Origin: a virus
Taxonomy: Duplodnaviria; Heunggongvirae; Uroviricota; Caudoviricetes
Virus record (IMG/VR): IMGVR_UViG_2778261065_000024
Location: 1-49,328 of that record
Direction: 5' to 3' (one strand)
DNA: 49,328 nucleotides
Shown in pieces: positions 3,550 through 26,293 of the stretch. The notes below the pieces were generated by a model. It was not told the DNA's origin. It made no database searches and worked only from the letters and a program-made list of their open reading frames with translations. Each line of letters starts with the position of its first letter. Position 1 is the stretch's first letter. The position numbers and the translations under genes are program-made.

Positions 3550-3581
3550 GTTCAATTATGAGAACTTTCTAAGGGGGCAGC

Positions 3582-8397: not shown

Positions 8398-8467
8398 TTA
8401 CGCTGGTTAACAATTCGTGCTCTTAATAATACCAGGCATATCAGGCTGATAAGCGTAAAAAAAACGT

Positions 8468-8510: not shown

Positions 8511-8551
8511 GTTATACATACAGCATTGCGTGTGGTGTCATAGGAGGAAAG

Positions 8552-8740: not shown

Positions 8741-8750
8741 GGTGACTTTT

Positions 8751-8984: not shown

Positions 8985-9097
8985 TTTTGTCAATAGACGC
9001 TTGTTTTTACTAATCAAAAAGGGTTACATATGAGTGAGAGGCGATGTCAATCAGATATCGCCTTGTTTTTTGTCAAGAAAAGAATAATAGGCTAAAA

Positions 9098-9775
9098 ATG
9101 AAAATTAATAATGTAGCGTTACCAATATCTCTTGCTGTAATCCTAACTGGTTGCGTGCCACATGCTTCTAACCGAAATATCACTGCTATTGAAGTGGTGA
9201 AGCCTGCTATTGGGCAAAGTGCTACCGCCTACATGGGCGATCCCATTATCACATCTGCTACTGGATTTAAAACGGACGTACTAGAACTTGGTGCGGCTAA
9301 TGGTGCATTGTCTTCTATCGCTGCTGGTACATATTGCAGTGAGGGGAATGGAATTTACCGCAATTATCATAACCCTCAAGCTGTTGCGTTAAAAAATCTC
9401 TATGGGCAAATCGGTAACTATGTTGATTATGTTAGTTACGATGCTGCAAAAAATGAGATATCACCGCCAAATGGTACTTCTTATACTGCATCAGAAATTT
9501 CTATCAAACGTGTTCCTGATGGGCTGTGTCGAGTTAGTAACTCATTGGTTAAGACTATCGAATACAATGGAAATGCAGGCGGTGTAATGAAGTTCACCTA
9601 TCGTGAATTTGCAAACGATATGGCTCGTGCAGCATTTACAACAGATTTTTCTGTAGATTCTAAGGGAAGTGACGTTATCGCTTACAAAGGTGCCAAGTTC
9701 AAAGTGAACAAGGCTGATAACTCGTCTATTTCTTATACAATTATTTCTGGCTTTGACAAGGCTGTCACGTTCTAG
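9098..9775 (+). CDS. putative lipoprotein (cargo gene; function unknown)
   Basis: N-terminus MKINNVALPISLAVILTGC with lipobox LTGC; alternative start at 9044 with GAGAGG RBS; moderately AT-rich; lies between A and the packaging genes. Confidence 0.7.
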   Translation: MKINNVALPISLAVILTGCVPHASNRNITAIEVVKPAIGQSATAYMGDPIITSATGFKTDVLELGAANGALSSIAAGTYCSEGNGIYRNYHNPQAVALKNLYGQIGNYVDYVSYDAAKNEISPPNGTSYTASEISIKRVPDGLCRVSNSLVKTIEYNGNAGGVMKFTYREFANDMARAAFTTDFSVDSKGSDVIAYKGAKFKVNKADNSSISYTIISGFDKAVTF

Positions 9776-9879
9776 GTTTCACGCTTACTGAGTATGTTAC
9801 GATTTTGCACATTCTGCATAAGCGCGCATGTCTATGCTGCATGAGATCGCATGATCGTTTGAGGATCTTTTGTGTTAAG

Positions 9880-9904
9880 GCCCGCCAGTTCTGGCGGGCT
9901 TTTG
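9880..9904 (+). terminator. rho-independent terminator candidate downstream of the lipoprotein gene
   Basis: GCCCGCCAG-tt-CTGGCGGGC hairpin followed by TTTTG. Confidence 0.5.
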
Positions 9905-9948
9905 CGTAGATCATGCAGGTGCATGAAAACCACTACATAAAGCGGGCA

Positions 9949-9967
9949 GGCGTGGCGGGGATACGAG
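9949..9967 (+). other. candidate cos (cohesive end) site of the 186-like prophage
   Basis: GGCGTGGCGGGGATACGAG resembles the P2 cos cohesive end GGCGAGGCGGGGAAAGCAC as I recall it; correct strand relative to Q; the recalled sequence is not verified. Confidence 0.3.
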
Positions 9968-10077
9968 CGCGCGCTCATGGTTGAATTAATGAAATTATGG
10001 TGTTAAATAGGCTAGCTTTTTAAGTCGTGAATATTCAATTTTTCAACTCATTTTTTTCATAGGGAGGAGTAATTGAC

Positions 10078-10776
10078 ATGGTTATGTTAGTGGATGACTG
10101 TCCACGATGTGGATCACAAAAAATAGCGTTTGATGTTAATGGGCTGAATTGCACTAGGGTTTACAATGCATTGGGCGGGGGTAAAACATACGAGTACGAG
10201 GTCTATTGTGTTTGCCGAGAGTGTCATAAAACGACAATGTTTCTTTGCAGACCTTTAACGAAAAATAAAACTTTAGATGGCTATAATTGGGAAAGTGGAA
10301 TATTCGGCTTAAAGGAAGTTGCAGAGGTTGTTAGGCCTATATCACCGGCAGACTTAGCAGTAGAGGAGCCACCAGAGTTCTTACCTGAGCATATCAATAG
10401 TGCATATGAGGAAGGGGCGAAATGTTTGGCTATAGGTTGTTATAATGCAGCAGCAACCATGTTTAGGCTTTGCCTTGATTATGCCACAAAAGGACTTCTT
10501 CCTGATGGGGAGCAAGGGCCTGCGCAAAAAATAAGGAGAAGCCTAGGGTTAAGAATGGAGTGGTTATTTGATAATCATCTACTGCCTGAAGCTTTAAGGG
10601 AACTAGCTGAATGCGTTAAAGATGACGGAAATGATGGAGCGCATGAAGGTATTTTGGATAAAGCTGCTGCTGAGGATCTTGAAGATTTTACCTATCTTTT
10701 TTTAGAACGGCTTTACACTGAACCTCAACGCCTTATCGAAGCCAAGACAAGGCGTGAACAAAGAAGAAACAAATAA
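10078..10776 (+). CDS. zinc-ribbon protein with DUF4145-like C-terminal domain (cargo gene, candidate defence)
   Basis: 232 aa; strong RBS AGGGAGGAG; N-terminal CPRCG...CVCRECH (C4 zinc ribbon); C-terminal VKDDGNDGAHEG resembles the GN..AH signature I associate with DUF4145; sits between candidate cos and the Q stop. Confidence 0.75.
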   Translation: MVMLVDDCPRCGSQKIAFDVNGLNCTRVYNALGGGKTYEYEVYCVCRECHKTTMFLCRPLTKNKTLDGYNWESGIFGLKEVAEVVRPISPADLAVEEPPEFLPEHINSAYEEGAKCLAIGCYNAAATMFRLCLDYATKGLLPDGEQGPAQKIRRSLGLRMEWLFDNHLLPEALRELAECVKDDGNDGAHEGILDKAAAEDLEDFTYLFLERLYTEPQRLIEAKTRREQRRNK

Positions 10777-10784
10777 GTTCGGAA

Positions 10785-11822
10785 TTATTCTTCTGAAAGA
10801 ATATAGGGCGTAAATTTAATCACTTCTTCGCCCAGCCAGTCGTTCAGCTCTTGTAGCCTTTTTTGCAAGGGAGTTAATTCATTACGTACAAATACGCGAC
10901 TGGCCTTCTCCACATCCCCAAACCCTCCAACATTATTAGGCATAATCCCCATCATTTGCGGCGGCACGCGGTGCGCAGCCATCATGTCGTCGCGGCTGAC
11001 ATTTTTGATATTCAAAAACTCATCCTTCGCCGCGACTTCTGACAATGGGATGATCTGAAGCCCGTCTTTTTTGCCGTTAGGCGAGTACATAAACAGGTTG
11101 CGGAAGTTGCCTGGACCTTTGGCGCTTTTCATCGCATTGCGGAGGTTGTTCACATCCTCCTGGTTTTGCGCGGCATCGGTCATGTACATGATAAAGCCCG
11201 CATGACTGCCGTTAATGTAATACTTGCGACGGAACAGCGTGGCGGACTCGTTGAGCAGGGCTGACGGAATGGCAGAAAGATAACCGGGCAGGCCGTAGAT
11301 CTCCTGATTAATATCCGGTTCCATCAGATGAAAAATGCTGCCTTTCGTGAACTGATACGGCTGGGTTGTCATACCGTATTGCACAAACCAGTAGGTATCC
11401 AGGTCTAACCCGCGTCGGGTGTATTTTGCCAGTGCAGGCTCAAGGGCGATAACTTCACCGAAGCGGTTCGTGCGTTTCTCCAGGTAGGCGTTACCAAAAA
11501 CCAGATAGTCCTGCACAAAACGCGAAAAAGCCTGCTGGCTGAGCAGCGGGTGAGGGATGTAGGTGCTGGTCAGAATGTTGCACTTTACTGCAATCGGGGA
11601 ACTATGATGCACGGCAGCGCGGAAGGTGCGCGCCAGTCCGTCAAAGCTGACGGGCGGCTCATACCAGCGGTCCATCTGTACGCATTCCACATAATCCAGC
11701 AGTTCTCGGCGGTCCAGAACAGGAACGGGATCGCCGAAGCTGAATGCTTCGGCTGTAGTTTGACTTTTAAGCTGGATCTGTTTCGTCGCCGCAGCGCGGT
11801 TCTTCTTACTCTTTCCCATCAA
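10785..11822 (-). CDS. Q: portal protein gpQ
   Basis: 345 aa; P2 Q-like length and position; paralogous to the 36740-37786 copy (HRVPPQMMG, GDVEKA). Confidence 0.9.
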   Translation of the reverse strand: MMGKSKKNRAAATKQIQLKSQTTAEAFSFGDPVPVLDRRELLDYVECVQMDRWYEPPVSFDGLARTFRAAVHHSSPIAVKCNILTSTYIPHPLLSQQAFSRFVQDYLVFGNAYLEKRTNRFGEVIALEPALAKYTRRGLDLDTYWFVQYGMTTQPYQFTKGSIFHLMEPDINQEIYGLPGYLSAIPSALLNESATLFRRKYYINGSHAGFIMYMTDAAQNQEDVNNLRNAMKSAKGPGNFRNLFMYSPNGKKDGLQIIPLSEVAAKDEFLNIKNVSRDDMMAAHRVPPQMMGIMPNNVGGFGDVEKASRVFVRNELTPLQKRLQELNDWLGEEVIKFTPYILSEE

Positions 11823-13585
11823 AAAATCTCCACAATATTGCTGGTATTGGCGGATTCGCCCTGCAGCGGTTCGTTAAACAGTGCGTGCATCGTTGCCCAG
11901 GCCAGATCGGCGTGGCTGGCTTCTTCGCTGCGGCTGGCTTCATAGGTCGGGCGGTTGCCACTGGCGGTGGTGGCGCGACGGATTGCCATAAAGGACTGCG
12001 CTATGTCGGTGTGTCCGGCGTCAAACTCCAGACGGCGGTGGCTGATAATGTCGTAGGCCTTGAGTACCAGGGCGTTTTTAACGTTGGGGTTGTAGACAAA
12101 CTCCCGGACGGCAGGAAAAAACGCTTTCACGTTCTCGTAAACCCCGTGACCAACGCCGGTTGAGTCGATACCGATATAGGTCACGTTGTACTGTTCGGTC
12201 AGTTTTTTGATGGCGTCAGCCTGGGCGCGGAAGTCCATTCCGCGCCACTGGTGACGCTCAAGAATGCGGAACTTACCGCCCGGCACGGCTGGCGGCGCCA
12301 CCACCACGCATCCGGCGCTGTCGCCGTTCTGCGTACCTTTCGCCGGGTCATATCCGATCCACACTTCGCGCCAGCCAAACGGGCGCAGGGCCAGTGCATG
12401 AAAGTCGGTCCAGACTTCCCAACTGTCCACCATGCACGCCTGCAGCTCGCTGAGCGGGAACACGGACGCGAGATCGTCCACGAACTCGCACATCAGCAGG
12501 TTCTGGTATTCGTCCGGGCTGTACTCCATGCGCAACTGGTCAAGGTCGAACAGGTTACAGCCGCCGCGCACCGCATCTTCCACGGTGACTATCTGGCGGT
12601 ACTGCCCGTCTGCGCACAGCAGGCCGGGGGCCAGATTGCTGTGGGACAGGTCGATGTCCACCTTATCGGCTTTGTTGCGCCCTCGGTTGAACAGCGCACC
12701 GGACCAGAACGGATAAGCACTGTGTGTCAGGCTGGATGGCGTGGAAAAATAGGTTTGTCGCCATTTTTTGTGAATAGCCATACCGGAAGCCACTTTGCGC
12801 AGCTCCTGGAATTTCGGTATCCAGAAATATTCATCCAGATACAGGTTGCCGTGGTAACTCTGGGCCGTGCGGGCATTGGTGCCGAGGAAGTAAAGCGTGG
12901 CCCCGTTAGGAAGCACCATCGGATCGCCTTTCAGCTCCACCTCGACTTCTTTGGCGAAGTCGATGATGTACTGCTTAAAGACGTGGGCCTGTGCCTTACT
13001 GGCGGAAAGGAAAATCTGGTTACGTCCGGTCAGCAGGGCGTCAATCAGGGCTTCACGGGCAAAGTAAAAGGTCGCGCCGATCTGGCGAGACTTCAGCAGG
13101 TTGCGGATGCGATTGGTTTTTCCGGCTTCCCACCAGTGGCGCTGGTAGTTGAACATGGAGGAATGGAAGATTTCTTCCAGCTTCTCAATCTGTTCATCGG
13201 TGAAAACATTCTTTTCCGGCTGACGGCGCGGCCCTTTGTTGCGGTTGGCGACGTTAGGGTTTAAGTCGGCTTCGTTGCCGCCATTGTTAAACTTGCCGAT
13301 CCGCGCGTGGCGCTCCGACTGGCGCGCCAGCAGGTCAATTTCTTTGAAATCTTTCCCTTCTTTGTGCTCCTTCATAATGAGCTGGCAGTAGCGGGCGGCG
13401 GTGGTGAGCTGCATCTGATCCAGCGGCCCATAGTCACCCCACTTGTCGCGTTTTTTCCAGCTGTGAACGGTTGCAACTTTCTCGCCCAGCATTTCAGCAA
13501 TGCGGGCTACGCGGTATCCCTGAAAGTACAGCAGCATGGCCTGCCGACGGGGATCGAGATCTGCGGGTGTCAGTGTGGTGTTCAT
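11819..13585 (-). CDS. P: terminase large (ATPase) subunit gpP
   Basis: 588 aa; paralogous to 34989-36740; conserved LKSRQIGATFYFA block; overlaps the Q start. Confidence 0.9.
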   Translation of the reverse strand: MNTTLTPADLDPRRQAMLLYFQGYRVARIAEMLGEKVATVHSWKKRDKWGDYGPLDQMQLTTAARYCQLIMKEHKEGKDFKEIDLLARQSERHARIGKFNNGGNEADLNPNVANRNKGPRRQPEKNVFTDEQIEKLEEIFHSSMFNYQRHWWEAGKTNRIRNLLKSRQIGATFYFAREALIDALLTGRNQIFLSASKAQAHVFKQYIIDFAKEVEVELKGDPMVLPNGATLYFLGTNARTAQSYHGNLYLDEYFWIPKFQELRKVASGMAIHKKWRQTYFSTPSSLTHSAYPFWSGALFNRGRNKADKVDIDLSHSNLAPGLLCADGQYRQIVTVEDAVRGGCNLFDLDQLRMEYSPDEYQNLLMCEFVDDLASVFPLSELQACMVDSWEVWTDFHALALRPFGWREVWIGYDPAKGTQNGDSAGCVVVAPPAVPGGKFRILERHQWRGMDFRAQADAIKKLTEQYNVTYIGIDSTGVGHGVYENVKAFFPAVREFVYNPNVKNALVLKAYDIISHRRLEFDAGHTDIAQSFMAIRRATTASGNRPTYEASRSEEASHADLAWATMHALFNEPLQGESANTSNIVEIF

Positions 13586-13631
13586 GGCACAAACCTACAG
13601 CCTTGAATGAAGGCTTTCCCCGCCTGCGGTT

Positions 13632-13649
13632 TGTGTGGTTGTCGGTACA
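13632..13649. promoter_or_regulatory. TGT-N12-ACA dyad (Ogr/B-type late activator site) in the divergent P/O late promoter region
   Basis: TGTgtggttgtcggtACA between the P and O start codons. Confidence 0.4.
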
Positions 13650-13727
13650 AATACCGCGCATTGTTTCACTGCCCCCATCACCGCAACCATAAGGCTCCAG
13701 TAAGTTTTTTCTAACGGAGCACGGCTC

Positions 13728-14561
13728 ATGACAGTGAAAGCAAAGCGTTTTCGCATCGGGGTGGAAGGTGCCACTACCGACGGACGCGAAATCCAGCGTG
13801 AATGGCTGGAACAGATGGCAGCCAGCTACAACCCGGCGGTGTATACCGCGCTGATTAACCTTGAGCACATTAAGTCTTATCTGCCGGACAGCACGTTTAA
13901 CCGCTACGGCAAGGTGACGGCGCTGTTTGCTGAAGAAATCGCGGAAGGTCCGCTGGCAGGCAAGATGGCACTGTATGCCGACGTTGAGCCAACGGAGTCC
14001 CTGGTGGAACTGGTGAAAAAAGGCCAGAAATTATTCACCTCTATGGAAGTCAGCCCGAAGTTTGCTGATACGGGCAAAGCCTACCTGGTCGGCCTGGCTG
14101 CCACTGATGATCCCGCCAGTCTGGGTACGGAAATGCTGACATTCAGCGCCAGTGCAGCCCATAACCCGCTGGCAAACCGCAAGCAGAATCCTGCCAATCT
14201 TTTTACCGCTGCAGAGGAAACGGTGATCGAACTGGAAGAAATCCAGGAGGACAAGCCGTCCCTGTTTGCCCGCGTCACGGCGCTGTTTACCAAAAAAGAG
14301 CAGTCCGATGACGTCCGGTTCTCTGATGTGCATAAGGCCGTGGAACTGGTCGCCACTGAGCAGCAGAACCTGAGCACGCGCACCGAAAAATCCCTGTCTG
14401 AGCAGGAAGAACGCCTGTCTGAGCTGGAGACTGCTCTGCAGGAGCAGCAAACCGCCTTTAACGAACTGGTGGATAAGCTGAGTCATGAAGACAGCCGCCA
14501 GGACTACCGCCAGCGTGCAACAGGCGGCAACGCCCCCGCTGACACTCTGACCAATTGCTGA
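13728..14561 (+). CDS. O: capsid scaffolding protein gpO
   Basis: 277 aa; N-terminal FRIGVEGATTDGREI; P2 O-like position before the major capsid gene. Confidence 0.85.
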   Translation: MTVKAKRFRIGVEGATTDGREIQREWLEQMAASYNPAVYTALINLEHIKSYLPDSTFNRYGKVTALFAEEIAEGPLAGKMALYADVEPTESLVELVKKGQKLFTSMEVSPKFADTGKAYLVGLAATDDPASLGTEMLTFSASAAHNPLANRKQNPANLFTAAEETVIELEEIQEDKPSLFARVTALFTKKEQSDDVRFSDVHKAVELVATEQQNLSTRTEKSLSEQEERLSELETALQEQQTAFNELVDKLSHEDSRQDYRQRATGGNAPADTLTNC

Positions 14562-14577
14562 TGGAGCATAAAACCCA

Positions 14578-15636
14578 ATGAAGAAGAATACCCGTTTTGC
14601 TTTTAACGCTTACCTGCAGCAACTGGCGCGTCTGAACGGTGTGGCAGTTGAGGAACTGTCCAGCAAGTTCACCGTAGAGCCGTCTGTGCAGCAGACGCTG
14701 GAAGACCAGATCCAGCAGTCCGCCGCTTTCCTGACGCTGATTAACGTCACGCCAGTGACTGAGCAGTCCGGTCAGCTGCTTGGATTGGGTGTTGGCAGCA
14801 CCATTGCCGGAACCACTGACACCACCGCGAAAGAGCGTGAACCTGTCGATCCGACGCTGATGATCGATGTGGAATACAAATGCGAACAGACCAACTTTGA
14901 CACGGTGCTGACCTACGCGAAGCTGGACCTGTGGGCGAAGTTTCAGGATTTCCAGGTGCGTATCCGTGACGCCATCGTGAAACGCCAGGCACTGGACCGC
15001 ATCATGATCGGCTTTAACGGCGTGAAGCGTGCGAAAACCTCCAACCGTAGCGAAAACCCGCTGCTGCAGGATGTGAACAAAGGCTGGCTGCAGAAAATCC
15101 GTGAGGATGCACCGGATCACGTCATGGGCAGCACCACCACGGGCGGTGAAACCACACCGGGTGCGGTGAAAGTCGGGAAAGGTGGCGAATATGCCAACCT
15201 GGACGCCGTGGTGATGGATGCGGTCAATGAGCTTATCGACGTGGTCTACCAGGACGATGACGATCTGGTGGTGATTTGCGGTCGTGAGCTGCTGTCTGAC
15301 AAGTATTTCCCGCTGGTCAACAAAGAGCAGGAAAACAGTGAAAAACTGGCTGCCGATATGATCATCAGTCAGAAACGCATGGGTGGCCTGCAGGCCGTGC
15401 GTGCGCCGTTCTTCCCGCCGAATGCGCTGCTGATCACCCGTCTGGATAACCTGTCCATTTACTGGCAGGAAGACACCCGCCGCCGTTCGGTTATCGACAA
15501 CCCGAAACGTGACCGGATTGAAAATTTTGAATCCGTTAACGAAGCCTATGTGGTTGAGGACTACCGCTGCGCCGCACTGGTGGAAAACATCCAGATTGGC
15601 GACTTCAGCGCCGCCGCAGCAGAAACCGGAGCGTAA
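14578..15636 (+). CDS. N: major capsid protein gpN
   Basis: 352 aa; paralogous to 32923-33975; P2 N-like length and synteny. Confidence 0.9.
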   Translation: MKKNTRFAFNAYLQQLARLNGVAVEELSSKFTVEPSVQQTLEDQIQQSAAFLTLINVTPVTEQSGQLLGLGVGSTIAGTTDTTAKEREPVDPTLMIDVEYKCEQTNFDTVLTYAKLDLWAKFQDFQVRIRDAIVKRQALDRIMIGFNGVKRAKTSNRSENPLLQDVNKGWLQKIREDAPDHVMGSTTTGGETTPGAVKVGKGGEYANLDAVVMDAVNELIDVVYQDDDDLVVICGRELLSDKYFPLVNKEQENSEKLAADMIISQKRMGGLQAVRAPFFPPNALLITRLDNLSIYWQEDTRRRSVIDNPKRDRIENFESVNEAYVVEDYRCAALVENIQIGDFSAAAAETGA

Positions 15637-15639
15637 ACC

Positions 15640-16290
15640 ATGAGCCTGAGTCCCGCACGGCAGCATCGCCTGCGCGTTCAGGCTGAACAGGCCGCCCGCG
15701 AGGGCGGCAGCGTTCGCCACGCGTCGGGCTATGACCTGATGCTGCTGCAACTGGCAGAAGACCGCCGCCGTCTCAAGGGCGTTCAGTCCACGGTCAAAAA
15801 AGCGGAAATCAAGGTGGAGCTGCTGCCGAAATACGCCGCCTGGGCGGAGGGTGTCCTGGCTGCCGGAGGCGCTCAACAGGATGACGTGCTGATGTACGTG
15901 ATGCTGTGGCGCATTGATGCCGAAGATTATGTCGGAGCGCTGGAGATCGGGCGTCATGCCCTGCGTCATGGCTGGGTGATGCCGCTGGGTAACCGCAACG
16001 TGCAGACCGTGCTGGCAGAGGAAATGGCAGACGCAGCGCAGAGCGCAATGCTTGCCACTACCGGCTTTGATGTCGATCTGCTGCTGCAGACGCTGGAGCT
16101 GACAGACGGTCTGGATATGCCGGACCAGTCACGGGCGCGTCTGCATAAAGCGATTGGCGCTGTCCTGAGTGAAAGTAATCCGGCTTCCGCCCTTAATCAT
16201 CTCAACCATGCGTTACAGCTCGATCCCCGCTGTGGCGTGAAAAAAGACAAACAGCAGCTGGAGCGCAGACTGCGCAATGACAGCCGCTGA
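15640..16290 (+). CDS. M: terminase small/endonuclease subunit gpM
   Basis: 216 aa; synteny O-N-M-L; paralogous to 32077-32877. Confidence 0.85.
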   Translation: MSLSPARQHRLRVQAEQAAREGGSVRHASGYDLMLLQLAEDRRRLKGVQSTVKKAEIKVELLPKYAAWAEGVLAAGGAQQDDVLMYVMLWRIDAEDYVGALEIGRHALRHGWVMPLGNRNVQTVLAEEMADAAQSAMLATTGFDVDLLLQTLELTDGLDMPDQSRARLHKAIGAVLSESNPASALNHLNHALQLDPRCGVKKDKQQLERRLRNDSR

Positions 16291-16385
16291 CAGAACGTGC
16301 CCCCGCGCACGGGCGGCACGGGGTGGCGAAAGGCACTGCCACATCAAAACCCCGTCCACCGCCCTTTATTTCAGGAGAAAGCAGC

Positions 16386-16850
16386 ATGAAGTTTGTTGCG
16401 CCAGAACAGGCACCGGAACAGGCGGAAATCATCAGAAATACGCCGTTCTGGCCTGATGTGGACCTGTCGGAGTTTCGCAGTGTCATGCGCACTGACGGCA
16501 CGGTGACGCAGCCGCGTTTAAAGCAGGTTGCGCTGTCGGCAATTTCGGAGGTCAACGCAGAGCTGTATGAGTTTCGCAGACGCCAGCAGATGCTGGGGTA
16601 TGCCTCGCTGGCAGAAGTCCCGGCGGAACAACTGGACGGCAAAAGCGAGCGCATTCAGCACTATTTCAACGCGGTTTACTGCTGGGCACGCGCCATGCTC
16701 AACGAACGTTACCAGGACTATGACGCCACGGCATCCGGTGCGAAGCGAGGCGAGGAACTGGCGGAAGCAAGCGGTGATTTATGGCGTGACGCCCGCTGGG
16801 CCATCAGCCGGGTGCAGGATGCGCCGCACTGCACAGTGGAGCTTATCTGA
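16386..16850 (+). CDS. L: head completion protein gpL
   Basis: ATG at 16386 after AGGAGAAAG; synteny; paralogous to 31479-31973. Confidence 0.85.
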   Translation: MKFVAPEQAPEQAEIIRNTPFWPDVDLSEFRSVMRTDGTVTQPRLKQVALSAISEVNAELYEFRRRQQMLGYASLAEVPAEQLDGKSERIQHYFNAVYCWARAMLNERYQDYDATASGAKRGEELAEASGDLWRDARWAISRVQDAPHCTVELI

Positions 16851-17053
16851 TGAAAGTGCGTGCGCATCAGTATGACACGGTGGACGCACTTTGCTGGCGT
16901 CATTACGGGCGCACGCAGGGTGTCACGGAGCAGGTACTGAAGGCAAATCCGGGGCTTGCCGAATACGGCCCCTTTTTACCTCACGGGCTGCAGGTGGAGC
17001 TGCCGGACATTCCGACAACCACCACCGTGCAGACCGTCCAGCTATGGGACTGA
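16850..17053 (+). CDS. X: tail protein gpX
   Basis: 67 aa MKVRAHQYDTVDALCWRHYGRTQGVTEQVLKANPGL; paralogous to 31279-31479. Confidence 0.8.
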   Translation: MKVRAHQYDTVDALCWRHYGRTQGVTEQVLKANPGLAEYGPFLPHGLQVELPDIPTTTTVQTVQLWD

Positions 17054-17056
17054 ATT

Positions 17057-17272
17057 ATGACGCTTGAGCGAATCAGCGCCTTTATCACGTATTGCATCGC
17101 CGTCGTGCTGGCCTGGCTGGGCGATTTGTCCATCAAGGATGCCTCAACGCTGGGCGGCCTGATGATTGGTGTGCTGATGCTGGCTATCAACTGGTACTAC
17201 AAACACAAAGCCTACCAGCTTCTGCGCGACGGGCAGATTTCGCGGGAGGACTATGAATCCATCAATCGTTAA
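17057..17272 (+). CDS. holin (small membrane protein)
   Basis: 71 aa with hydrophobic helices, immediately upstream of the endolysin. Confidence 0.6.
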   Translation: MTLERISAFITYCIAVVLAWLGDLSIKDASTLGGLMIGVLMLAINWYYKHKAYQLLRDGQISREDYESINR

Positions 17273-17768
17273 ACGCTGCCTTGTCGGAGCCGTGCTGGCT
17301 ATTGCTGCCACGCTGCCGGGGTTTCAGCAGCTTCACACCTCCGTGGAGGGGCTGAAACTGATTGCCGATTACGAAGGTTGTCGTCTGCAGCCGTATCAGT
17401 GCAGCGCGGGTGTCTGGACCGACGGCATTGGAAATACGTCGGGCGTCATTCCCGGCAAAACAATCACGGAACGACAGGCAGCAGAAGGGCTTATTTCCAA
17501 CGTGCTGCGTGTGGAGCGGGCGCTGGAAAGGTGTGTGAAGCAACAGCCGCCGCAGAAGGTATATGACGCTACGGTGTCGTTTGCCTTCAACGTGGGAACG
17601 GGCAATGCCTGCAGTTCTACGCTGGTGAAATTGCTCAATCAGCGGCGCTGGGCAGAAGCGTGCCGACAGTTGCCGCGCTGGGTTTATGTGAAAGGTGTGT
17701 TTAATCAGGGGCTGGATAACCGCCGTGCGCGGGAGATGGCCTGGTGCCTTAAAGGAGCTGGATTATGA
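17253..17768 (+). CDS. endolysin, lysozyme with SAR-type N-terminal hydrophobic anchor
   Basis: N-terminal LVGAVLAIAATL; lysozyme catalytic-region pattern DYEG...TDGIGNT; lysis cassette position. Confidence 0.8.
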   Translation: MNPSIVKRCLVGAVLAIAATLPGFQQLHTSVEGLKLIADYEGCRLQPYQCSAGVWTDGIGNTSGVIPGKTITERQAAEGLISNVLRVERALERCVKQQPPQKVYDATVSFAFNVGTGNACSSTLVKLLNQRRWAEACRQLPRWVYVKGVFNQGLDNRRAREMAWCLKGAGL

Positions 17769-18193
17769 CGCGTGCGCTGGCGGTAGTGGCGGCGCTGGCA
17801 CTCGTTGCGCTGGGCTGGCAGTCGTGGCGGCTTAACAGCGCCAGCCACACCATCGAAACGCAGCGCGCGGCGCTGAAAAGTAAAGCGCACGAACTAACGA
17901 AGAAAAATAGCCAGCTGATCAGTCTGTCCATTCTGGCTGAAACCAATAACAGGGAGCAGGCGCGGCTCTATGCCGAAGCAGAACAGACCAGCGCGCTGCT
18001 GAGACAACGACAACACCGGATCGAGGAACTGAAACGTGAGAACGAGGATTTACGCCGCTGGGCTGATACTCCTTTGCCTGCTGACATTATCCGGCTGCGG
18101 GAACGTCCGGCACTCACCGGAGGTGCAGCTTACCGTCAGTGGTTGTCCGCGAGTGACGCCGTGTCGGCTGGAGCAGGCAGCGCCGCGCACTAA
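17765..18193 (+). CDS. i-spanin (Rz/LysB-like)
   Basis: N-terminal TM helix, charged coiled-coil-like body; follows the endolysin; embeds the start of an overlapping lipoprotein ORF. Confidence 0.6.
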   Translation: MTRALAVVAALALVALGWQSWRLNSASHTIETQRAALKSKAHELTKKNSQLISLSILAETNNREQARLYAEAEQTSALLRQRQHRIEELKRENEDLRRWADTPLPADIIRLRERPALTGGAAYRQWLSASDAVSAGAGSAAH

Positions 18194-18326
18194 CGGTGAT
18201 CTGAACGCATTGCTGGATGAAACGGAGGCCGCCTGGGCGGTCTGTGCAGACAAAGTGGACATGATTATTGCGTGTCAGGAGCGAAACAGTGAACAAACCA
18301 CAATCCCTGCGCCACGCCCTCAATAA
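18036..18326 (+). CDS. o-spanin (Rz1/LysC-like lipoprotein)
   Basis: GTG start; signal peptide with lipobox LSGC; overlaps the 3' end of the i-spanin gene in another frame. Confidence 0.5.
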   Translation: MRTRIYAAGLILLCLLTLSGCGNVRHSPEVQLTVSGCPRVTPCRLEQAAPRTNGDLNALLDETEAAWAVCADKVDMIIACQERNSEQTTIPAPRPQ

Positions 18327-18720
18327 AGCAGTGCCTTATGTCCGCAATAACCCGGATAAGCTGCATCTGTTTGTGGATAACGGTTCGCTGGTTGCCACGG
18401 GGGCCAGCTCCATGTCATGGGAGTACCGTTATACCCTCAACGTGGTGATTGAGGATTTCAGCGGCGACCAGAATCTGCTGATGGCCCCGGTTTTGCTGTG
18501 GCTGCGTGATAACCAGCCCGATGCCATCAATAATCCGGCGTTACGGGAAAAGTTATTCACCTTTGAGGTGGATATTCTGCGCAACGATGTCTGTGATATC
18601 AGCCTCAACCTGCAACTGACGGAACGTGTGCTGGTCAGCACTGACGGAAGTGTGTCGAGCGTTGAAGCAGTAGCGGAACCCGATGAACCTGAAGAAATGT
18701 GGACGGTGAAACGTGGCTGA
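18289..18720 (+). CDS. R: tail completion protein gpR
   Basis: GTG at 18289 after AGGAG; aligns with the paralogue at 29344-29811 (YRY, LLxWLxxNQP); alternative TTG start at 18268. Confidence 0.8.
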   Translation: MNKPQSLRHALNKAVPYVRNNPDKLHLFVDNGSLVATGASSMSWEYRYTLNVVIEDFSGDQNLLMAPVLLWLRDNQPDAINNPALREKLFTFEVDILRNDVCDISLNLQLTERVLVSTDGSVSSVEAVAEPDEPEEMWTVKRG

Positions 18721-19165
18721 ACTGCAGAAGGTGGACGACTGGCTGAGTGCTTTGCTGGCGAATCTGGAACCAGCCGCAAGAAGCCGAATGATGCGCCAGC
18801 TGGCGCAGGAACTGCGCCGGACACAGCAGCAGAATATCAGGATGCAGCGCAATCCAGATGGCAGCAGTTATGAGCCGCGCAGGGTAACAGCACGCAGCAA
18901 GAAGGGGCGCATCAAACGTCAGATGTTTGCAAAGCTGCGCACCACAAAATACCTGAGAACTGCCGCCAGCGCGGATTCTGCCAGCGTACAGTTTGAAGGT
19001 AAGGTACAGCGTATTGCCCGTGTTCATCACTACGGTCTGCGCGATCGCGTCAGTCCAAAGGGGGGAGTCATTAAGTATCCATCCCGAAAATTGCTGGGTT
19101 TAAATGAACATACTGAAAATGAAGTAAGAGATTTACTTTTAAAGTATTTATTGATGAAAAATTAG
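18713..19165 (+). CDS. S: tail completion protein gpS
   Basis: 150 aa; GTG start overlapping the R stop; paralogous to 28716-29360 (IARVH, LLG). Confidence 0.85.
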   Translation: MAELQKVDDWLSALLANLEPAARSRMMRQLAQELRRTQQQNIRMQRNPDGSSYEPRRVTARSKKGRIKRQMFAKLRTTKYLRTAASADSASVQFEGKVQRIARVHHYGLRDRVSPKGGVIKYPSRKLLGLNEHTENEVRDLLLKYLLMKN

Positions 19166-19170
19166 AATGT

Positions 19171-19701
19171 TTACGCTCTTAATAAACTTAAATAACTTTT
19201 TATGCTTTGGCAAAAAGGGAAAAGGTCTATTTTAATTTTCCAGTTTTTTTTGTTTTGAACCCCAGAAGCAATAATAGAACCGTCCCAATATTTTATTCCA
19301 TTTTTGCCGGTCTTTTTTGTTAACTCAAAACTTAATGCGTGAATAATTTTATTGCAGCATTCGCGTATAGAATCTTTAACATGACCATCTATAACAAAAA
19401 GTATATTTTCATGTTCTTCAAATGCTTCTTTCTCAGGTGAGTAATCTGGGTTCCACTCATGTTCACTAGTGTCTTGGAGAATTCGTAGTTTTGTACAAAG
19501 GCTAATAAGATTGTTGCTAATGGTATATTCCAACCATCCGTTGTACGATAACTCCTCCATTTCAAATTCAGTTACTATAGAACCATCATATACTTTCTGT
19601 GTGGAATATATACGCTGTAAATAAAATTCAGATGAACAGCATAATTGCTCAATTATTCTTGCGTGTTCTTCTATAGCGTAATAATCAATTGGATGGCTCA
19701 T
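19171..19701 (-). CDS. hypothetical protein (AT-rich moron between S and V, antisense to the late operon)
   Basis: 176 aa from ATG 19701 (ORF extends to 19740); markedly AT-rich; opposite strand to the flanking tail genes; no recognisable family. Confidence 0.7.
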   Translation of the reverse strand: MSHPIDYYAIEEHARIIEQLCCSSEFYLQRIYSTQKVYDGSIVTEFEMEELSYNGWLEYTISNNLISLCTKLRILQDTSEHEWNPDYSPEKEAFEEHENILFVIDGHVKDSIRECCNKIIHALSFELTKKTGKNGIKYWDGSIIASGVQNKKNWKIKIDLFPFCQSIKSYLSLLRA

Positions 19702-19732
19702 TCTTTTACCTTTCTTTGATTGGAATTGTATT

Positions 19733-19750
19733 TGTGTCATTTACCACACA
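19733..19750. promoter_or_regulatory. TGT-N12-ACA dyad upstream of gene V (late promoter activator site candidate)
   Basis: TGTgtcatttaccacACA about 50 bp upstream of the V start. Confidence 0.35.
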
Positions 19751-19796
19751 AGGACGTATTGATGCCATAGATTCAAGGTCCGTGCAACCTAACCCT

Positions 19797-20375
19797 ATGA
19801 ACGCACAACTAACCGAAATCATGCGCCTTATCACCAACCTGATCCGCACTGGTGTAGTCACCGAAGTGGACCGGGAAAACTGGCTTTGCCGGGTTAAAAC
19901 GGGCGAGCTTGAAACCAACTGGATCAGCTGGCTGACGCTGCGTGCCGGGAATGCCCGCACATGGTGGCGACCATCGGAAGGTGAGCAGGTGGTGCTGCTG
20001 AGTCTGGGCGGCAATCTGGAAACTGCCTTTGCGCTGCCCGCTGTCTATTCGAATCAGTTCGCACCACCGTCGACGTCGGCAGACGCCTGCGTGACAGAAC
20101 ATCCTGACGGCGGCTGGTTTGAATACGAACCCACTACCGGGCGCTGGTATGTCAGGGGCATCAAATCAATGGTCATTGAGGCCGCTGACAACATCACCAT
20201 GAAAACCAGTGAGTTTGTACTGGAGGCTGACCGCACGCGCATTAACAGCGAAGTGGTGATCAATGGTGGCGTTACCCAGGGCGGCGGAGCGATGAGTTCT
20301 AACGGGATCGTGGTTGATGCGCATCAGCATACTGACGTCCTGAAAGGCGGCGACACAACCGGAGGCCCGGTATGA
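19797..20375 (+). CDS. V: baseplate spike/assembly protein gpV
   Basis: N-terminus aligns with the paralogue at 28138-28719 (MRLxxNxIRTG..EVD); C-terminal HxH..GG motifs. Confidence 0.85.
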   Translation: MNAQLTEIMRLITNLIRTGVVTEVDRENWLCRVKTGELETNWISWLTLRAGNARTWWRPSEGEQVVLLSLGGNLETAFALPAVYSNQFAPPSTSADACVTEHPDGGWFEYEPTTGRWYVRGIKSMVIEAADNITMKTSEFVLEADRTRINSEVVINGGVTQGGGAMSSNGIVVDAHQHTDVLKGGDTTGGPV

Positions 20376-20731
20376 CGCTTTATAGCGGGATGAACAATAC
20401 CAGCGGTAAAGCCATTACTGATATTGATCATCTGCGCCAGTCGGTGCGGGACATTTTGCTGACGCCGCAGGGTAGCCGCATTGCCCGTCGGGAATATGGT
20501 TCCCTGCTGTCGGCACTGATAGACCAGCCACAAAATCCGGCATTACGCCTGCAGGTCATGTCGGCAGTGTATGTGGCGCTGAGTCGCTGGGAGCCACGGC
20601 TGACGCTGGATTCCATCACCATTAACAGCAATTTTGACGGTTCAATGGTGGTGGAGCTGACCGGGCGGCGTAATAACGGTGTGCCTGTTTCCCTTTCCGT
20701 ATCAACAGGAGCAGAGAATGGCAGTGATTGA
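20372..20731 (+). CDS. W: baseplate protein gpW
   Basis: 119 aa; paralogous to 27791-28141 (RREYGSL, LTRWEPR). Confidence 0.85.
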   Translation: MTLYSGMNNTSGKAITDIDHLRQSVRDILLTPQGSRIARREYGSLLSALIDQPQNPALRLQVMSAVYVALSRWEPRLTLDSITINSNFDGSMVVELTGRRNNGVPVSLSVSTGAENGSD

Positions 20732-21626
20732 CCTTTCGCAGTTGCCTGCGCCGCAGATTGTGGATGTGCCGGACTTTGAGACGCTGCTTGCCGAACGCAA
20801 GGCAGAATTTGTGGCGCTTCATCCGAAAGATGAGCAGGAAGCAGTGATCCGCACGCTGGAACTGGAATCTGAACCCGTCACCAAATTGTTGCAGGAGAAT
20901 GCTTACCGTGAGTTGCTTCTGCGCCAGCGCATTAACGAAGCCGCGCAGGCGGTGATGGTGGCTTATGCCATAGGGGGCGATCTGGACCAGCTCGCCGCCA
21001 ACTACAACGTGAAACGCCTGACGGTGACGCCTGCTGATAATGACGCTGTGCCGCCCGTTGCAGCTGTGATGGAAAGCGATGAAGCGTTACGCCTGCGTGT
21101 GCCTGCAGCCTTTGAAGGGCTTTCAGTTGCGGGGCCAACTGCAGCTTATGAATTTCATGCCCGAAGCGCCGACGGTCGGGTGGCGGATGCCAGTGCAACC
21201 AGCCCAGCACCTGCAGAGGTGGTGCTGACTGTCCTTAGCCGCGAAGGCGATGGAACTGCAGAAAAAGACCTGCTGGACGTGGTGAAAAAAGCTCTGAACA
21301 GTGAGAACGTCCGCCCGGTGGCTGACCGTCTTACGGTTCGCAGCGCAGAAATCATCCCGTATCGCGTGGAAGCCACCATTTTTCTCTATCCGGGACCGGA
21401 AGCAGAGCCGGTAATGGCAGCGGCAAAAGCCAGTCTGCAGAAGTACATTGCCAGCCAGACGAGGCTTGGTCGGGATATTCGCCGTAGCGCCATCTTTGCT
21501 GCTCTGCATGTTGAGGGTGTTCAACGTGTGGAACTGGCTTCTCCGCTGGCGGATGTGGTCCTGAACAAAACACAGGCGGCATCATGTACGCAGTGGAGCG
21601 TAACCAACGGAGGAACGGATGAATAG
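20718..21626 (+). CDS. J: baseplate assembly protein gpJ
   Basis: ATG at 20718 after AGGAGCAGAGA; paralogous to 26891-27787. Confidence 0.9.
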   Translation: MAVIDLSQLPAPQIVDVPDFETLLAERKAEFVALHPKDEQEAVIRTLELESEPVTKLLQENAYRELLLRQRINEAAQAVMVAYAIGGDLDQLAANYNVKRLTVTPADNDAVPPVAAVMESDEALRLRVPAAFEGLSVAGPTAAYEFHARSADGRVADASATSPAPAEVVLTVLSREGDGTAEKDLLDVVKKALNSENVRPVADRLTVRSAEIIPYRVEATIFLYPGPEAEPVMAAAKASLQKYIASQTRLGRDIRRSAIFAALHVEGVQRVELASPLADVVLNKTQAASCTQWSVTNGGTDE

Positions 21627-22224
21627 TCTGCTGCCACCGGGTTCAACTTCACTGGAGCGCCGACTGGCGCAAACCTGTAGCGGGATTTCTGATCTGCAGG
21701 TGCCGCTGCGTGACTTGTGGAATCCGGCTACCTGTCCGGTCAGCTTCCTGCCTTATCTCGCCTGGGCGTTCTCTGTGGATCGCTGGGACGAGGGCTGGAC
21801 AGAAAGCGTCAAACGCCAGGTAGTGAAGGATGCTTTTTATATTCATCAGCATAAAGGAACTACCAGTGCCGTGCGGCGGGTGGTGGAACCGTTCGGATTC
21901 CTGATCCGCATTATTGAGTGGTGGCAGACCGGAGAAACACCGGGCACGTTTCGCCTGGATATCGGCGTGCAGGACCAGGGCATCACTGAAGATACCTATC
22001 TGGAACTTGAGCGGCTGATAAGCGATGCCAAACCATGTAGCCGTCACATGATCGGCATGTCCATCAATCTGCAGACCAGCGGTCCGCATTGGGTGGGGGC
22101 CGCCAGCTATCTTGGCGAAGAAATCACGATCTATCCGTATATCAACGAAACAATTATTTCCGGCGGCACCGCGCATGAAGGCGGGGCGGTCCATGTTATT
22201 GACACAATGAGAGTGAATCCATGA
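21619..22224 (+). CDS. I: baseplate/tail protein gpI
   Basis: 201 aa; paralogous to 26290-26931 (LPYLAWAFSVDRWD). Confidence 0.85.
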   Translation: MNSLLPPGSTSLERRLAQTCSGISDLQVPLRDLWNPATCPVSFLPYLAWAFSVDRWDEGWTESVKRQVVKDAFYIHQHKGTTSAVRRVVEPFGFLIRIIEWWQTGETPGTFRLDIGVQDQGITEDTYLELERLISDAKPCSRHMIGMSINLQTSGPHWVGAASYLGEEITIYPYINETIISGGTAHEGGAVHVIDTMRVNP

Positions 22225-23642
22225 GCACAAAATTTTATACCCTGCTGACGGATATTGGCGCGGCGAAACTTGCCAGCGCCGCCGCGCTCGGTGTGCCGCT
22301 AAAAATTACCCATATGGCGGTGGGCGATGGCGGCGGAACATTGCCAACGCCGGACGCCAAGCAGACAGCATTGGTAAATGAGAAACGCCGGGCTGCGCTG
22401 AATATGCTCTATATCGACCCGCAGAACAGCAGCCAGATTATTGCTGAACAGGTGATCCCTGAAAACGAGGGCGGTTGGTGGATACGTGAAGTGGGCCTGT
22501 TTGATGAGTCCGGGGCATTGATTGCCGTGGGCAACTGCCCGGAAAGCTATAAGCCGCAACTGGCTGAAGGCAGCGGGCGTACCCAGACCGTGCGCATGGT
22601 GCTGATTACCAGCAGCACGGACAATATCACCCTGAAAATCGACCCTGCCGTAGTGCTGGCAACCCGCAAGTATGTGGATGACAAGGTACTGGAGCTGAAG
22701 GTGTACGTGGATGATCAGATGGCAAAACATCTTGCCGCACCGGACCCGCATTCACAGTATGCACCCAAAGAAAGTCCGACGTTTACCGGGACACCAAAAG
22801 CGCCAACTCCAGCGGCAGGGAATAACACCACGCAGGTTGCGACCACCGCGTTTGTTCAGGCGGCACTGACGGCTCTTATTAATGGTGCGCCAGCCACGCT
22901 GGACACGCTGAAAGAAATAGCCGCAGCCATTAACAATGATCCGAATTTCAGTACCACCATTAACAATGCGCTGGCACTGAAAGCGCCGTTGTCGAGTCCG
23001 GCACTCACCGGAACGCCAACAGCCCCCACTGCTGCACAGTCGGTCAACAATACACAGATTGCCACCACGGCTTTTGTGAAATCGGCGATTGCAGCAATGG
23101 TAGGTTCTGCACCTGCGGCACTGGATACACTGAACGAACTGGCGTCGGCGTTGGGGAATGATCCGAACTTTGCCACGACAATGCTTAATGCGCTGGCAGG
23201 TAAACAACCGCTGGACAATACGCTGACTAATTTGAGTGGAAAGGATGTCGCTGGTCTTCTCGCATACCTTGGTTTGGGAGAAGCGGCAAAACGGGAGGTG
23301 GGGACAGGGGAAAATCAGATACCGGACATGGCTTCTTTTGCCAGTGGTGATGGATGGATGAAATTACCCAACGGGAAAATCCTGCAATATGGTCGAGGTG
23401 CGGTTACGCCAACATTATCGACGCAAACAATGAGAATTACATTCAGCATCCCTTTTCCTAAAAAAGTGGACTGCGCCATGCTTACCCATTCTGGTGATGG
23501 TGGTGCGCCTTTAGGCGCTGGACGGGGATTCGTGATGACTGCAGAAGGTCCAACACTAACCGGTTTTAATTCCGCTTACAGAACTGCATCAACCAGCTCC
23601 ACAGTATCGATGAATTACAGTTGGTGGGCTGTTGGTGAGTAA
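22221..23642 (+). CDS. H: tail fibre protein gpH
   Basis: 473 aa; conserved N-terminal about 150 aa shared with 24680-26293; repeated NDPNF / ATTAFV motifs. Confidence 0.85.
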   Translation: MSTKFYTLLTDIGAAKLASAAALGVPLKITHMAVGDGGGTLPTPDAKQTALVNEKRRAALNMLYIDPQNSSQIIAEQVIPENEGGWWIREVGLFDESGALIAVGNCPESYKPQLAEGSGRTQTVRMVLITSSTDNITLKIDPAVVLATRKYVDDKVLELKVYVDDQMAKHLAAPDPHSQYAPKESPTFTGTPKAPTPAAGNNTTQVATTAFVQAALTALINGAPATLDTLKEIAAAINNDPNFSTTINNALALKAPLSSPALTGTPTAPTAAQSVNNTQIATTAFVKSAIAAMVGSAPAALDTLNELASALGNDPNFATTMLNALAGKQPLDNTLTNLSGKDVAGLLAYLGLGEAAKREVGTGENQIPDMASFASGDGWMKLPNGKILQYGRGAVTPTLSTQTMRITFSIPFPKKVDCAMLTHSGDGGAPLGAGRGFVMTAEGPTLTGFNSAYRTASTSSTVSMNYSWWAVGE

Positions 23643-24680: not shown

Positions 24681-26293
24681 TATGCAGCTCTCACGATATA
24701 GTTAAATGCAATATTTCGTGGACGGGTTTCGCTCCCACCTGTGTTACCAATACTCCCTCGTGTATGTAGCGTTGGTGATGGAATCAGAGTTCCTCCGACA
24801 TCGGCAGCATCAAGCCCCCGGCCTTGCGTATATGCTCTTCTGAAGATTGTCGCCAGTTCCCATTCCTCTTTTGAATCATACCCATCGTTGGCAACAACAA
24901 TATGGCGGTGCTTCTCCAGCATCCCAGTCTGAATGCTCAATAAAGCACGTCCAGCATCAACGCCTCGTCCGTCATCCCAGCCACGAATAAACTCACCACG
25001 GAGATCAGGTAGTTTCCCTGATGGATATGCTGTAGCAAGATGGGGATATTTAACCTTATCAAAGGCGGCGCCATTGCATTTCAACCAGCCTGTCGGCAAA
25101 GTGGCTGAAGGCCATGGAACAGGCACACCAACGGGTAATGCAGAGCCTTCTCCCAAACCAAGGTAATCAAGAACCCCCTGCGTGCTGGGCTTACTAAGAA
25201 TGGCACGTCCAACACTTGTCAGTGCGGTTAACGCGGCGCGATCTGCACCTGTAAAATAAGGGAGTTTATCTGCTGCTGTAGCAAGTCCTGCCAGCGCCGT
25301 CAGGGTAGCATCCTTCGGTTGCTTACCCGCAAGCGCGTTAGTCATGGTTGTCGCAAAATTCGGGTCGTTACCCAGCGCCGCCGCCAGCTCGTTCAGCGTG
25401 TTCAGTGCGTCAGGTGACGAGTCTACAAGCGCGGCAATCGCGGCCATAACATAAGCCGTGCTTGCGATCTGAGTATTATTAGTCCCCTGTGGCGCTGTTG
25501 GCGTTGTTGGCGTTCCGGTCAGTGCCGGGCTGTTTAATGGGGCTTTCTTGTTTGTTTCATCCATTACCACCTTAACGGCTTTTGGTGTCGCTGCCAGTGT
25601 TTCAGACGTGCTGTTCGTGGCGCTACTGAGCTGAACAATCCCTTTTTGTGTTGTGGTGGCATTCTGGGCGGTATATTTCCCGCTAGCCAGGTCATATGCA
25701 GCCTTAACCGCTTTCGGTGTTGCGGCCAGTGTTTCTGATTCACTGTTAATTGCACTGCTTAACTGAGTGAAACCTTTTGCGGTCAGCGAGGCGTCCGGGT
25801 GGCGTCGTGACTGTTCGTGCTCTGAGATTTTGTCATCCACATATTTGCGGGTTGCCAGAACCACAGACGGGTCGATTTTCAGCGTGATAGCTTCGGTATT
25901 CGTGACAACCAGAATCATGCGGATAGTCTGGGTACGACCACTGCCTTCCTGCAACTGCGGTTTGTACGTTTCCGGGCAGTTCGCCACCGCAATGAGTACG
26001 CCTTCATCATCATAAAGCCCAATCTCACGTATCCAGAATCCGCCCTCGTTCTCAGGGATGATTTGCTCCGCAATAATCTGGTTCTGGTTGTTCGGGTCAA
26101 CACTCAGAAGATTCAGCGGTGCAATGCGTTTCTGGTTAATCAGTTTTGTTTGTGCAGGGTCTGGTGTTGGTAACACACCATTTGCATCACCAACGGCCAT
26201 TTGCGTCAGATTCAGCTTACTGCCGAGCATCGTCGCGTTAGCCAGTCGTGCCGCGCCCTGATTAGTCAGAATGGCGTAGTATTTCACTGTCAT
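24680..26293 (-). CDS. H: tail fibre protein gpH (second segment)
   Basis: 537 aa; conserved N-terminus (AVGD..LPTPD, IPENEGG.WIRE) shared with 22221-23642. Confidence 0.85.
   Translation of the reverse strand: MTVKYYAILTNQGAARLANATMLGSKLNLTQMAVGDANGVLPTPDPAQTKLINQKRIAPLNLLSVDPNNQNQIIAEQIIPENEGGFWIREIGLYDDEGVLIAVANCPETYKPQLQEGSGRTQTIRMILVVTNTEAITLKIDPSVVLATRKYVDDKISEHEQSRRHPDASLTAKGFTQLSSAINSESETLAATPKAVKAAYDLASGKYTAQNATTTQKGIVQLSSATNSTSETLAATPKAVKVVMDETNKKAPLNSPALTGTPTTPTAPQGTNNTQIASTAYVMAAIAALVDSSPDALNTLNELAAALGNDPNFATTMTNALAGKQPKDATLTALAGLATAADKLPYFTGADRAALTALTSVGRAILSKPSTQGVLDYLGLGEGSALPVGVPVPWPSATLPTGWLKCNGAAFDKVKYPHLATAYPSGKLPDLRGEFIRGWDDGRGVDAGRALLSIQTGMLEKHRHIVVANDGYDSKEEWELATIFRRAYTQGRGLDAADVGGTLIPSPTLHTRGSIGNTGGSETRPRNIAFNYIVRAA

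Follow-up and report, generated by a model that had tools for sequence, protein, structure and literature searches.

What does a small AT-rich gene, encoded antisense between the tail completion gene S and the baseplate gene V of a P2-like prophage, do for the phage or for the bacterium that carries it? We examined this question for the gene, here called X, that lies at this position in IMG/VR virus record IMGVR_UViG_2778261065_000024 (Duplodnaviria; Heunggongvirae; Uroviricota; Caudoviricetes), all 49,328 nt of which constitute the window analyzed. A preliminary description made from the sequence alone had reported a 176-aa product of unrecognized family and a base composition unlike that of the late genes, and both hold: the G+C content (GC) of X is 0.324, compared to 0.571 in the body of S and 0.572 in V, and no family matches the protein. 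Positions 9917-23339 of the window match bases 1-13423 of Escherichia phage Cartapus at 99.9% identity; this phage, classified as an Elveevirus (Peduoviridae), is a prophage of E. coli LF82. X itself is 100% identical (tblastn to Cartapus) to Cartapus gp14, annotated "hypothetical protein" and listed also as LF82_787, CARTA_14 and WP_000019234. X is an already catalogued gene in a known variable slot, not a new element type. What is new here is that X belongs to a sizeable, wholly unannotated, cross-phylum protein family under strong constraint.

We first establish the extent of the gene. The maximal minus-strand open reading frame (ORF) runs from 19740 to 19171 and yields 189 aa from its first ATG, while the ATG at 19701 is the start in all homologues and in the RefSeq annotation of identical copies, giving the 176-aa product MSHPIDYY.... 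Because the orthologues begin at MSHP and the sequence upstream is not conserved as protein, the 13 additional in-frame codons (Table 1) are most likely a 5' leader rather than coding; this leader contains an AAGG 9-12 nt ahead of the ATG. The chance of 189 stop-free codons at the base composition of X is 8e-8, and in 2000 shuffles of X the longest open run had a mean of 62 codons and a maximum of at most 167. Thus, with an open frame improbable by chance and a constrained sequence, X is a genuine gene. Its product is acidic (pI 5.4) and soluble. The protein matched no family at E≤10 in Pfam, NCBIfam or PADLOC and matched only its own family, 18838, whose function is not annotated, in PHROGs; the literature queried by its accession and locus tag held no mention of it.

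Orthologues of X in Salmonella (74% identity), Enterobacter (60%) and Pantoea (51%) occupy the identical antisense S-V position in P2-like prophages, have a GC of 0.37 compared to 0.53-0.59 in their flanks, and have diverged in parallel with S, V, W and R. The ratio of nonsynonymous to synonymous substitution rates (dN/dS) was 0.08-0.12 for pairs with unsaturated dS. Since dN/dS is about 0.1 and same-slot orthologues persist at 51-74% identity, we judge X to be a working gene under strong constraint, and its family has been resident in the P2 S-V slot across at least four enterobacterial genera. X was found in 22 of 5,426 complete E. coli genomes, in the S-V slot every time (a related early region occurs in 1,351), and its exact sequence lies on at least 1000 contigs, while among 50,697 phage records it was seen in Cartapus only. 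Some truncated alleles are also present in databases.

The gene had been described as accessory, in the manner of a moron, and we agree: it is carried by 2 of the 54 phage records that have this S-V region, the variability of the region is documented, and P2 orf30, which occupies the same position, is non-essential. Empty S-V sites exist in related phages. One lies in the window, as the preliminary description had pointed out, since a second, divergent P2-like late region extends from ~24 kb on the minus strand, and its V and S genes share 4 bp, leaving nothing between them.

The family extends far beyond enterobacterial phages. A single-sequence search of 5.8 billion proteins with X retrieved 12 clusters, and a profile search of 1.84 billion representatives with the X family extended this to 431 clusters (at 50% identity) with E≤1e-3, of which 131 had E≤1e-10. 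Members are nearly all single-domain proteins of 170-210 aa; Pfam searches with 124 of them gave scattered chance matches only, and the names attached to 155 profile matches and cluster members were "hypothetical protein" throughout. A survey that scanned one genome per species recovered 80 loci, distributed among Vibrionaceae, Pseudoalteromonas, Xanthomonadales, Rhodobacterales, Rhizobiales, cyanobacteria, Chloroflexi, Bacteroidota and one archaeon. Relatives of X occur on 19 of 2.9 million viral contigs, and 17 of these 19 are enterobacterial P2-like elements.

The loci show that X is autonomous. In Vibrio and Aliivibrio, the homologue is the sole ORF of ~700-bp cassettes between attC/VCR repeats in long arrays, and at four surveyed loci (L004, L008, L032 and L010) attC/VCR-type repeats every 450-1400 bp flank the homologue, such that these relatives are integron cassettes. 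All-against-all BLAST of neighbors across the 80 loci detected no conserved partner gene, with the exception of five Rhodobacterales loci (L033, L034, L047, L049 and L053), in which X is the third gene of an operon with DUF6088 (AbiEi-like) and AbiEii and overlaps AbiEii by 1-4 bp in most. Because the integron cassettes hold X alone and no partner gene was found, the X family is best described as a self-sufficient module of one gene that travels among mobile and variable regions. Immediate neighbors include AbiEii (5), a Lit-like protease, Drt4, Drt6, LmuB, mad3, HEPN/Toprim and GmrSD, together with resolvases and GNATs; at two genes' distance on either side (±2) we found TIR proteins, IS200 transposases and many ordinary metabolic genes. 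In this raw listing of neighbors, an association with defense genes is apparent but modest.

Two of these loci and one viral contig have further features. L033 and L034 each have a small conserved ORF (~105 aa) after DUF6088-AbiEii-X. A distant member (29% identity; L106, positions 5001-5546) neighbors gpD, gpU and the tape-measure gene on an unrelated P2-like viral contig; upstream of this member are two overlapping ORFs (387 and 220 aa) that have no Pfam match, and the three genes may together make up a cargo operon in a different moron slot.

The slot occupied by X has been described in other P2-like phages. The S-V junction is one of three variable regions in these phages, and no occupant of it (P2 orf30, R18C ORF16) has an assigned function in the literature (PMC6823313; PMC3091744). 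The P2 annotation gives the order S, terminator, orf30 (antisense, 261 aa, "nonessential"), activator binding site for the V-operon promoter P_V, and V, with the V-operon transcript beginning at the V start codon. Like X, P2 orf30 (NP_046770) and R18C ORF16 are AT-rich, non-essential or accessory, and located between S and V beside the P_V activator site, and orf30 has the same antisense orientation. Unlike X, with its 176 aa, P2 Orf30 has 261 aa, and P2 has a terminator after S whereas none was detected in the Cartapus-like segment. Moreover, X and P2 Orf30 have no sequence relationship (hhalign probability 0.8%), and we rejected X as an Orf30 homologue. The preliminary description had gone further, stating that morons at this position typically serve the lysogen through defense or exclusion. 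We could not substantiate this generalization, as the defense precedents of P2-like phages (old, tin, fun(Z) and the cos-proximal hotspot) occupy loci other than S-V, and the defense hotspot of Rousset et al. is likewise elsewhere, between gpA and gpQ. A defense role for X is thus a hypothesis.

X and S converge, their stop codons separated by 5 bp, and V is divergent from X. In an alignment of one empty relative and three filled loci, DNA homology fades within the S 3' end and is regained at a TGT-N12-ACA dyad before V. The last ~100 nt of S (~34 codons) have a GC of 0.29, and this AT-rich end is common to the filled-site orthologues and co-varies with X. The AT-rich S end and X form one mosaic block; since the S 3' end travels with X, the exchange that brought X also replaced the S C-terminus. 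A consensus promoter/terminator scan detected no terminator at the S/X junction; late transcription probably continues antisense across X.

The dyad at which homology resumes, TGTGTCATTTACCACACA, is kept in both filled and empty S-V sites; its center is 55.5 bp before the V ATG, and 32 nt separate the dyad from the start codon of X. Further TGT-N12-ACA dyads are found at 13574-13591 and 13632-13649 in the divergent P/O (terminase/scaffold) promoter region, which is the only other known late-promoter position with dyads in the Cartapus-like segment. The pattern occurs eight times in the window, which is not above chance, and only the positions are informative. Based on the layout of the P2 annotation, the conservation of the dyad and the dyads of the P/O region, we consider that it is probably the Ogr/activator site of P_V. 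This palindrome was also considered as a CRP site, which was dropped in favor of the P2-type late-promoter dyad after comparison with the P2 annotation. A TACAAT -10-like hexamer is present at 19725-19730 on the minus strand, and a similar hexamer recurs in orthologues; we infer that the X promoter lies here, with its -35 falling within the dyad.

Published stranded RNA-seq data from LF82 allowed us to compare X with its neighbors (PMC9928086, S1 Table; values are log2(fpkm+5), with fpkm denoting fragments per kilobase per million mapped reads). X was at 5.1-6.0 in the B1/B6 samples, and in macrophages at 5.1-5.3 at 1 h and 4.4-4.6 at 6 h, compared to 2.3-3.3 for S and V (with V at 4.1-4.3 in macrophages at 6 h); cI was at 8.1-9.3 outside stationary phase in lysogeny broth (LB). 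In LB stationary phase, X was at 3.5 and 2.7, which is background. Since the X RNA level exceeds those of S and V (5.1-6.0 in four conditions, compared to 2.3-3.3), X is weakly transcribed in the LF82 lysogen, apparently independently of these late neighbors, which are silent. Of the independent expression that the preliminary description looked to lysogen RNA-seq to confirm, weak transcription next to silent neighbors was seen, but not in LB stationary phase. The authors of that study did not list X as a moron, as it fell under their 5-fold cut-off on LB stationary-phase data (PMC9928086).

We then considered what the protein might do. An AlphaFold2 model of X from 13 sequences was confident (predicted local distance difference test score, pLDDT, 90; predicted template modeling score, pTM, 0.85), with helices at 7-34, 45-78, 89-95, 112-120 and 160-175 and strands at 101-105, 124-131, 137-149 and 152-159; the predicted fold is a long alpha-hairpin core with a beta-meander insert. 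Six polar residues are conserved across 124 family members: R73 (99%), D77 (87%), R113 (94%), N117 (99%), K118 (98%) and H121 (99%). G147 and W154 are also nearly invariant, H3 is conserved in 84%, and the motif R-E-x-C-N-K-I-I-H is found in 147 of 160 retrieved sequences. R113, N117 and H121 are spaced i, i+4, i+8, with H121 the first residue past the short helix at 112-120, and R73 and D77 are near the C-terminal end of helix 45-78. The homology and structure searches that the preliminary description had suggested thus delivered a family and a confident model, but no match in Pfam, NCBIfam, PADLOC, PDB or Foldseek.

This arrangement resembles that of HEPN proteins, which are defined by a four-helix bundle, an Rx4-6H motif ending helix 3 with a polar residue after the R, and an acidic residue in helix 2 (PMC3710099). 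The N-x3-H spacing of X and its His at a helix end fit this definition, and D77 corresponds to the acidic residue of helix 2. A precedent with similar spacing is encoded in the window itself, by a gene in the cos-proximal hotspot (10078-10776, plus strand) whose product combines a zinc ribbon with DUF4145 (PF13643, HEPN clan) and matches PD-T7-4 in PADLOC (E 1.2e-6). Like X, DUF4145/PD-T7-4 is single-gene prophage cargo with a helical core; the helix-2 R-x3-D of X recurs in this protein as R130-x3-D134, within the second core helix, and the basic-x3-N-x3-H spacing of X recurs as K181-x3-N185-x3-H189, just before the last helix. X differs from it in having no N-terminal zinc-ribbon/beta domain, in possessing the beta-meander and in matching neither PF13643 nor PD-T7-4. 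The single-gene HEPNs AbiD, AbiF, AbiJ, AbiU2 and AbiV (Anantharaman et al. 2013) are, like X, helical one-gene mobile modules with an R/N/H signature; no PADLOC or Pfam Abi model matches X, and this class serves as a working analogy for mechanism. The integron-cassette HEPN Vpc_cass2 (PDB 3jrt) and the MNT-associated HEPN toxins (7ae2, 5yep, 1jog) have no detected sequence similarity to X, which differs from them in its R-H spacing of 7 rather than 4-6 and in its extra beta insert; moreover, no MNT-type nucleotidyltransferase adjoins the X family, the AbiEii-linked subgroup excepted. In the HEPN families compared, nothing corresponds to the beta-meander (38 residues, between the motif and the last helix) of X, whose YW-G...G..G...W pattern resembles an SH3 strand pair weakly and without significance.

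Other mechanisms were considered for X and set aside. A Cys-His catalytic pair was rejected, as some members have A, S, F or W in place of C116, and PD-(D/E)xK, RES, Fic and ART-type motifs were dropped, as the acidic or Ser/Tyr residues that they require are not conserved. The invariant R/N/K/H signature, as read from the alignment, would be compatible with metal-independent RNA cleavage. A divergent HEPN-like RNase is our best lead for the mechanism of X, held with a little less than even confidence, and does not amount to established membership in that group.

Combining these results, we propose that X is a single-gene moron of the S-V slot with a weak antisense promoter and an HEPN-like effector product that serves the lysogen, a model that we consider possible but somewhat short of an even chance; its promoter logic, HEPN-like chemistry and defense role are the parts that we infer. 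The X promoter would overlap the Ogr-dependent activator site of P_V and would be free in the lysogen, permitting low-level expression. At late onset, Ogr and RNA polymerase at P_V would occlude the X promoter, and convergent read-through from the S operon would also shut X off. Acting alone, the protein would cleave or bind RNA as a divergent, metal-independent effector of HEPN-like type, with R73/D77 and R113/N117/K118/H121 as candidate effector residues. It would benefit the lysogen by keeping out other phages or aborting their infection or, in a broader sense, through stress-triggered growth arrest. Phage exclusion or abortive infection would be a plausible role for X.

Several results weigh against this model. 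The Arg of R113-E-x-C-N117-K-I-I-H121 is one turn too far from the His, such that the motif is R-x7-H and falls outside Rx4-6H. Remote comparisons gave no support for a HEPN assignment: two X-family profiles against PDB sequences found nothing credible (best 9cap, E 0.28; SH3 strand pair, E 1.8), Foldseek of the model found no match at E≤0.001 in PDB or BFVD, Pfam found neither HEPN nor any other family among the 124 members, and no defense model of PADLOC-DB 2.0 matched X at E≤10. Alignment of the X family to DUF4145 with hhalign gave a probability of <1% for the single sequence, a 36-sequence alignment and sub-alignments in local, low-mact and global modes, and we rejected X as a DUF4145 homologue. 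The consensus scan called no minus-strand promoter at X, the expression of X in the published LF82 data is low in the lysogen and absent in LB stationary phase, and many neighbors of the family are housekeeping genes, so that any enrichment near defense genes is modest. Finally, a lone RNase with neither antitoxin nor sensor domain would need an extra control mechanism.

If X were instead a decaying or functionless hitch-hiker ORF, its low expression in LB stationary phase and the existence of some truncated alleles would be explained, but this reading is effectively refuted by the conservation data: dN/dS of ~0.1, near-invariant residues across phyla, a confident structure prediction and 431 clusters at E≤1e-3. 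We also considered that X might serve the phage, as an anti-defense protein, a lytic-lysogenic regulator or a modulator of P_V or tail assembly. X does abut the P_V activator site inside the tail gene cluster and has been kept in the S-V slot over the long divergence of P2-like phages. However, most members of the family reside outside phages, in chromosomal islands and integron cassettes; closely related phages are viable without X; the gene runs antisense to the late genes and its RNA is present while they are silent; and no DNA-binding domain was detected in Pfam scans of X or of the 124 members. We therefore regard a phage-serving function as very unlikely.

A toxin of a toxin-antitoxin (TA) or addiction module that stabilizes the prophage or cassette array, its antitoxin being perhaps a small RNA or an overlapping short ORF, is in our estimate highly improbable. 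TA modules abound in integron arrays and prophages, the Rhodobacterales subgroup has X third in its AbiEi-AbiEii operon, and the convergent S transcript could furnish an antisense RNA; in contrast, the 80 loci contain no conserved adjacent antitoxin ORF, the ~700-bp cassettes fit one gene only, an Rfam scan of 18500-20500 gave sub-threshold chance matches only, and the acidic X protein is transcribed without an evident partner. A more serious contender, although still an unlikely one, is that X serves the lysogen but is neither an HEPN RNase nor anti-phage, being a novel-fold enzyme or binder of phosphate-bearing ligands (nucleotides, second messengers) or a stress or dormancy factor, as proposed for integron-cassette proteins. 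We consider it fairly unlikely that the HEPN-like model extends to its boldest form, in which X would found a phylum-spanning, partner-free, single-protein immunity family, with a strongly divergent HEPN-like RNase and an embedded beta (possibly SH3-like) sensor, that shuttles among the orf30 slot, Vibrio cassettes and defense islands and makes S-V a third, as yet unexploited, P2-like defense hotspot.

P2-like prophages are among the commonest in enterobacteria, and their cos-proximal hotspot is already the source of many defense systems. If X does exclude phages, hundreds of dark genes, integron cassettes included, would be annotated, and the S...V interval would become a second searchable anchor for mining prophage cargo. 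As X is short, partner-free and present in the well-studied pathobiont LF82, it is a cheap candidate for functional study; if it proves to have no phenotype, it would be an ordinary uncharacterized moron.

Table 1. Coordinates of gene X, its flanking features and other annotated features of the window.
Feature	Position	Strand	Basis or location
S (tail completion / virion morphogenesis)	18713..19165	+	ORF, RefSeq annotation
AT-rich 3' end of S	19063..19165	+	composition, alignment
X (moron protein CDS, 176 aa + stop)	19171..19701	-	ORF, homologue starts, RefSeq coordinates
Upstream in-frame extension of X ORF, 13 codons	19702..19740	-	upstream protein sequence without conservation in orthologues
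TGT-N12-ACA dyad TGTGTCATTTACCACACA	19733..19750		pattern match; kept in filled and empty S-V sites
V (baseplate spike)	19797..20375	+	ORF, RefSeq annotation, tblastn
V of second P2-like segment	28138..28719	-	tblastn, ORFs, Pfam Phage_base_V
S of second P2-like segment	28716..29360	-	tblastn, ORFs, Pfam Phage_tail_S
ORF without family match	37889-38278	+	second-prophage hotspot
YafO toxin	38329-38709	-	second-prophage hotspot
ORF without family match	38719-39363	-	second-prophage hotspot
ORF without family match	39485-40012	-	second-prophage hotspot
ParM-type segregation ATPase	40389-41348	-	second-prophage hotspot

The window as a whole consists of two P2-like prophage halves (1-23339 and 24000-49328) joined tail-to-tail at their tail-fiber genes, the first, Cartapus-like half running from int to tail fiber H and the second, divergent half from tail fiber to int on the other strand. 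Inverted repeats that are 76% identical lie at 22416-22684 and 25830-26098. The junction was found in 0 of the 5,426 complete E. coli genomes; it could reflect an inversion between two prophages, a non-E. coli source, or an assembly or concatenation artefact.

Both halves carry other cargo. In the second prophage, the hotspot at 37889-41348 lies between the portal and replication genes and holds the five ORFs listed in Table 1. At the start of the window (1-1521, minus strand), a GapS1-family gene adjoins the integrase, where Cartapus has a RES-domain gene. In LF82 lysogens, the DUF4145 gene of the cos-proximal hotspot (CARTA_1) rises from a log2 value of 4.7 in LB to 9.5 in macrophages (PMC9928086). 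Just before cos, a gene at 9098-9775 (plus strand) encodes a protein of 225 aa that matches neither Pfam nor PADLOC, and in strain MFDS1019527 an IS21 element lies between this gene and the DUF4145 gene.
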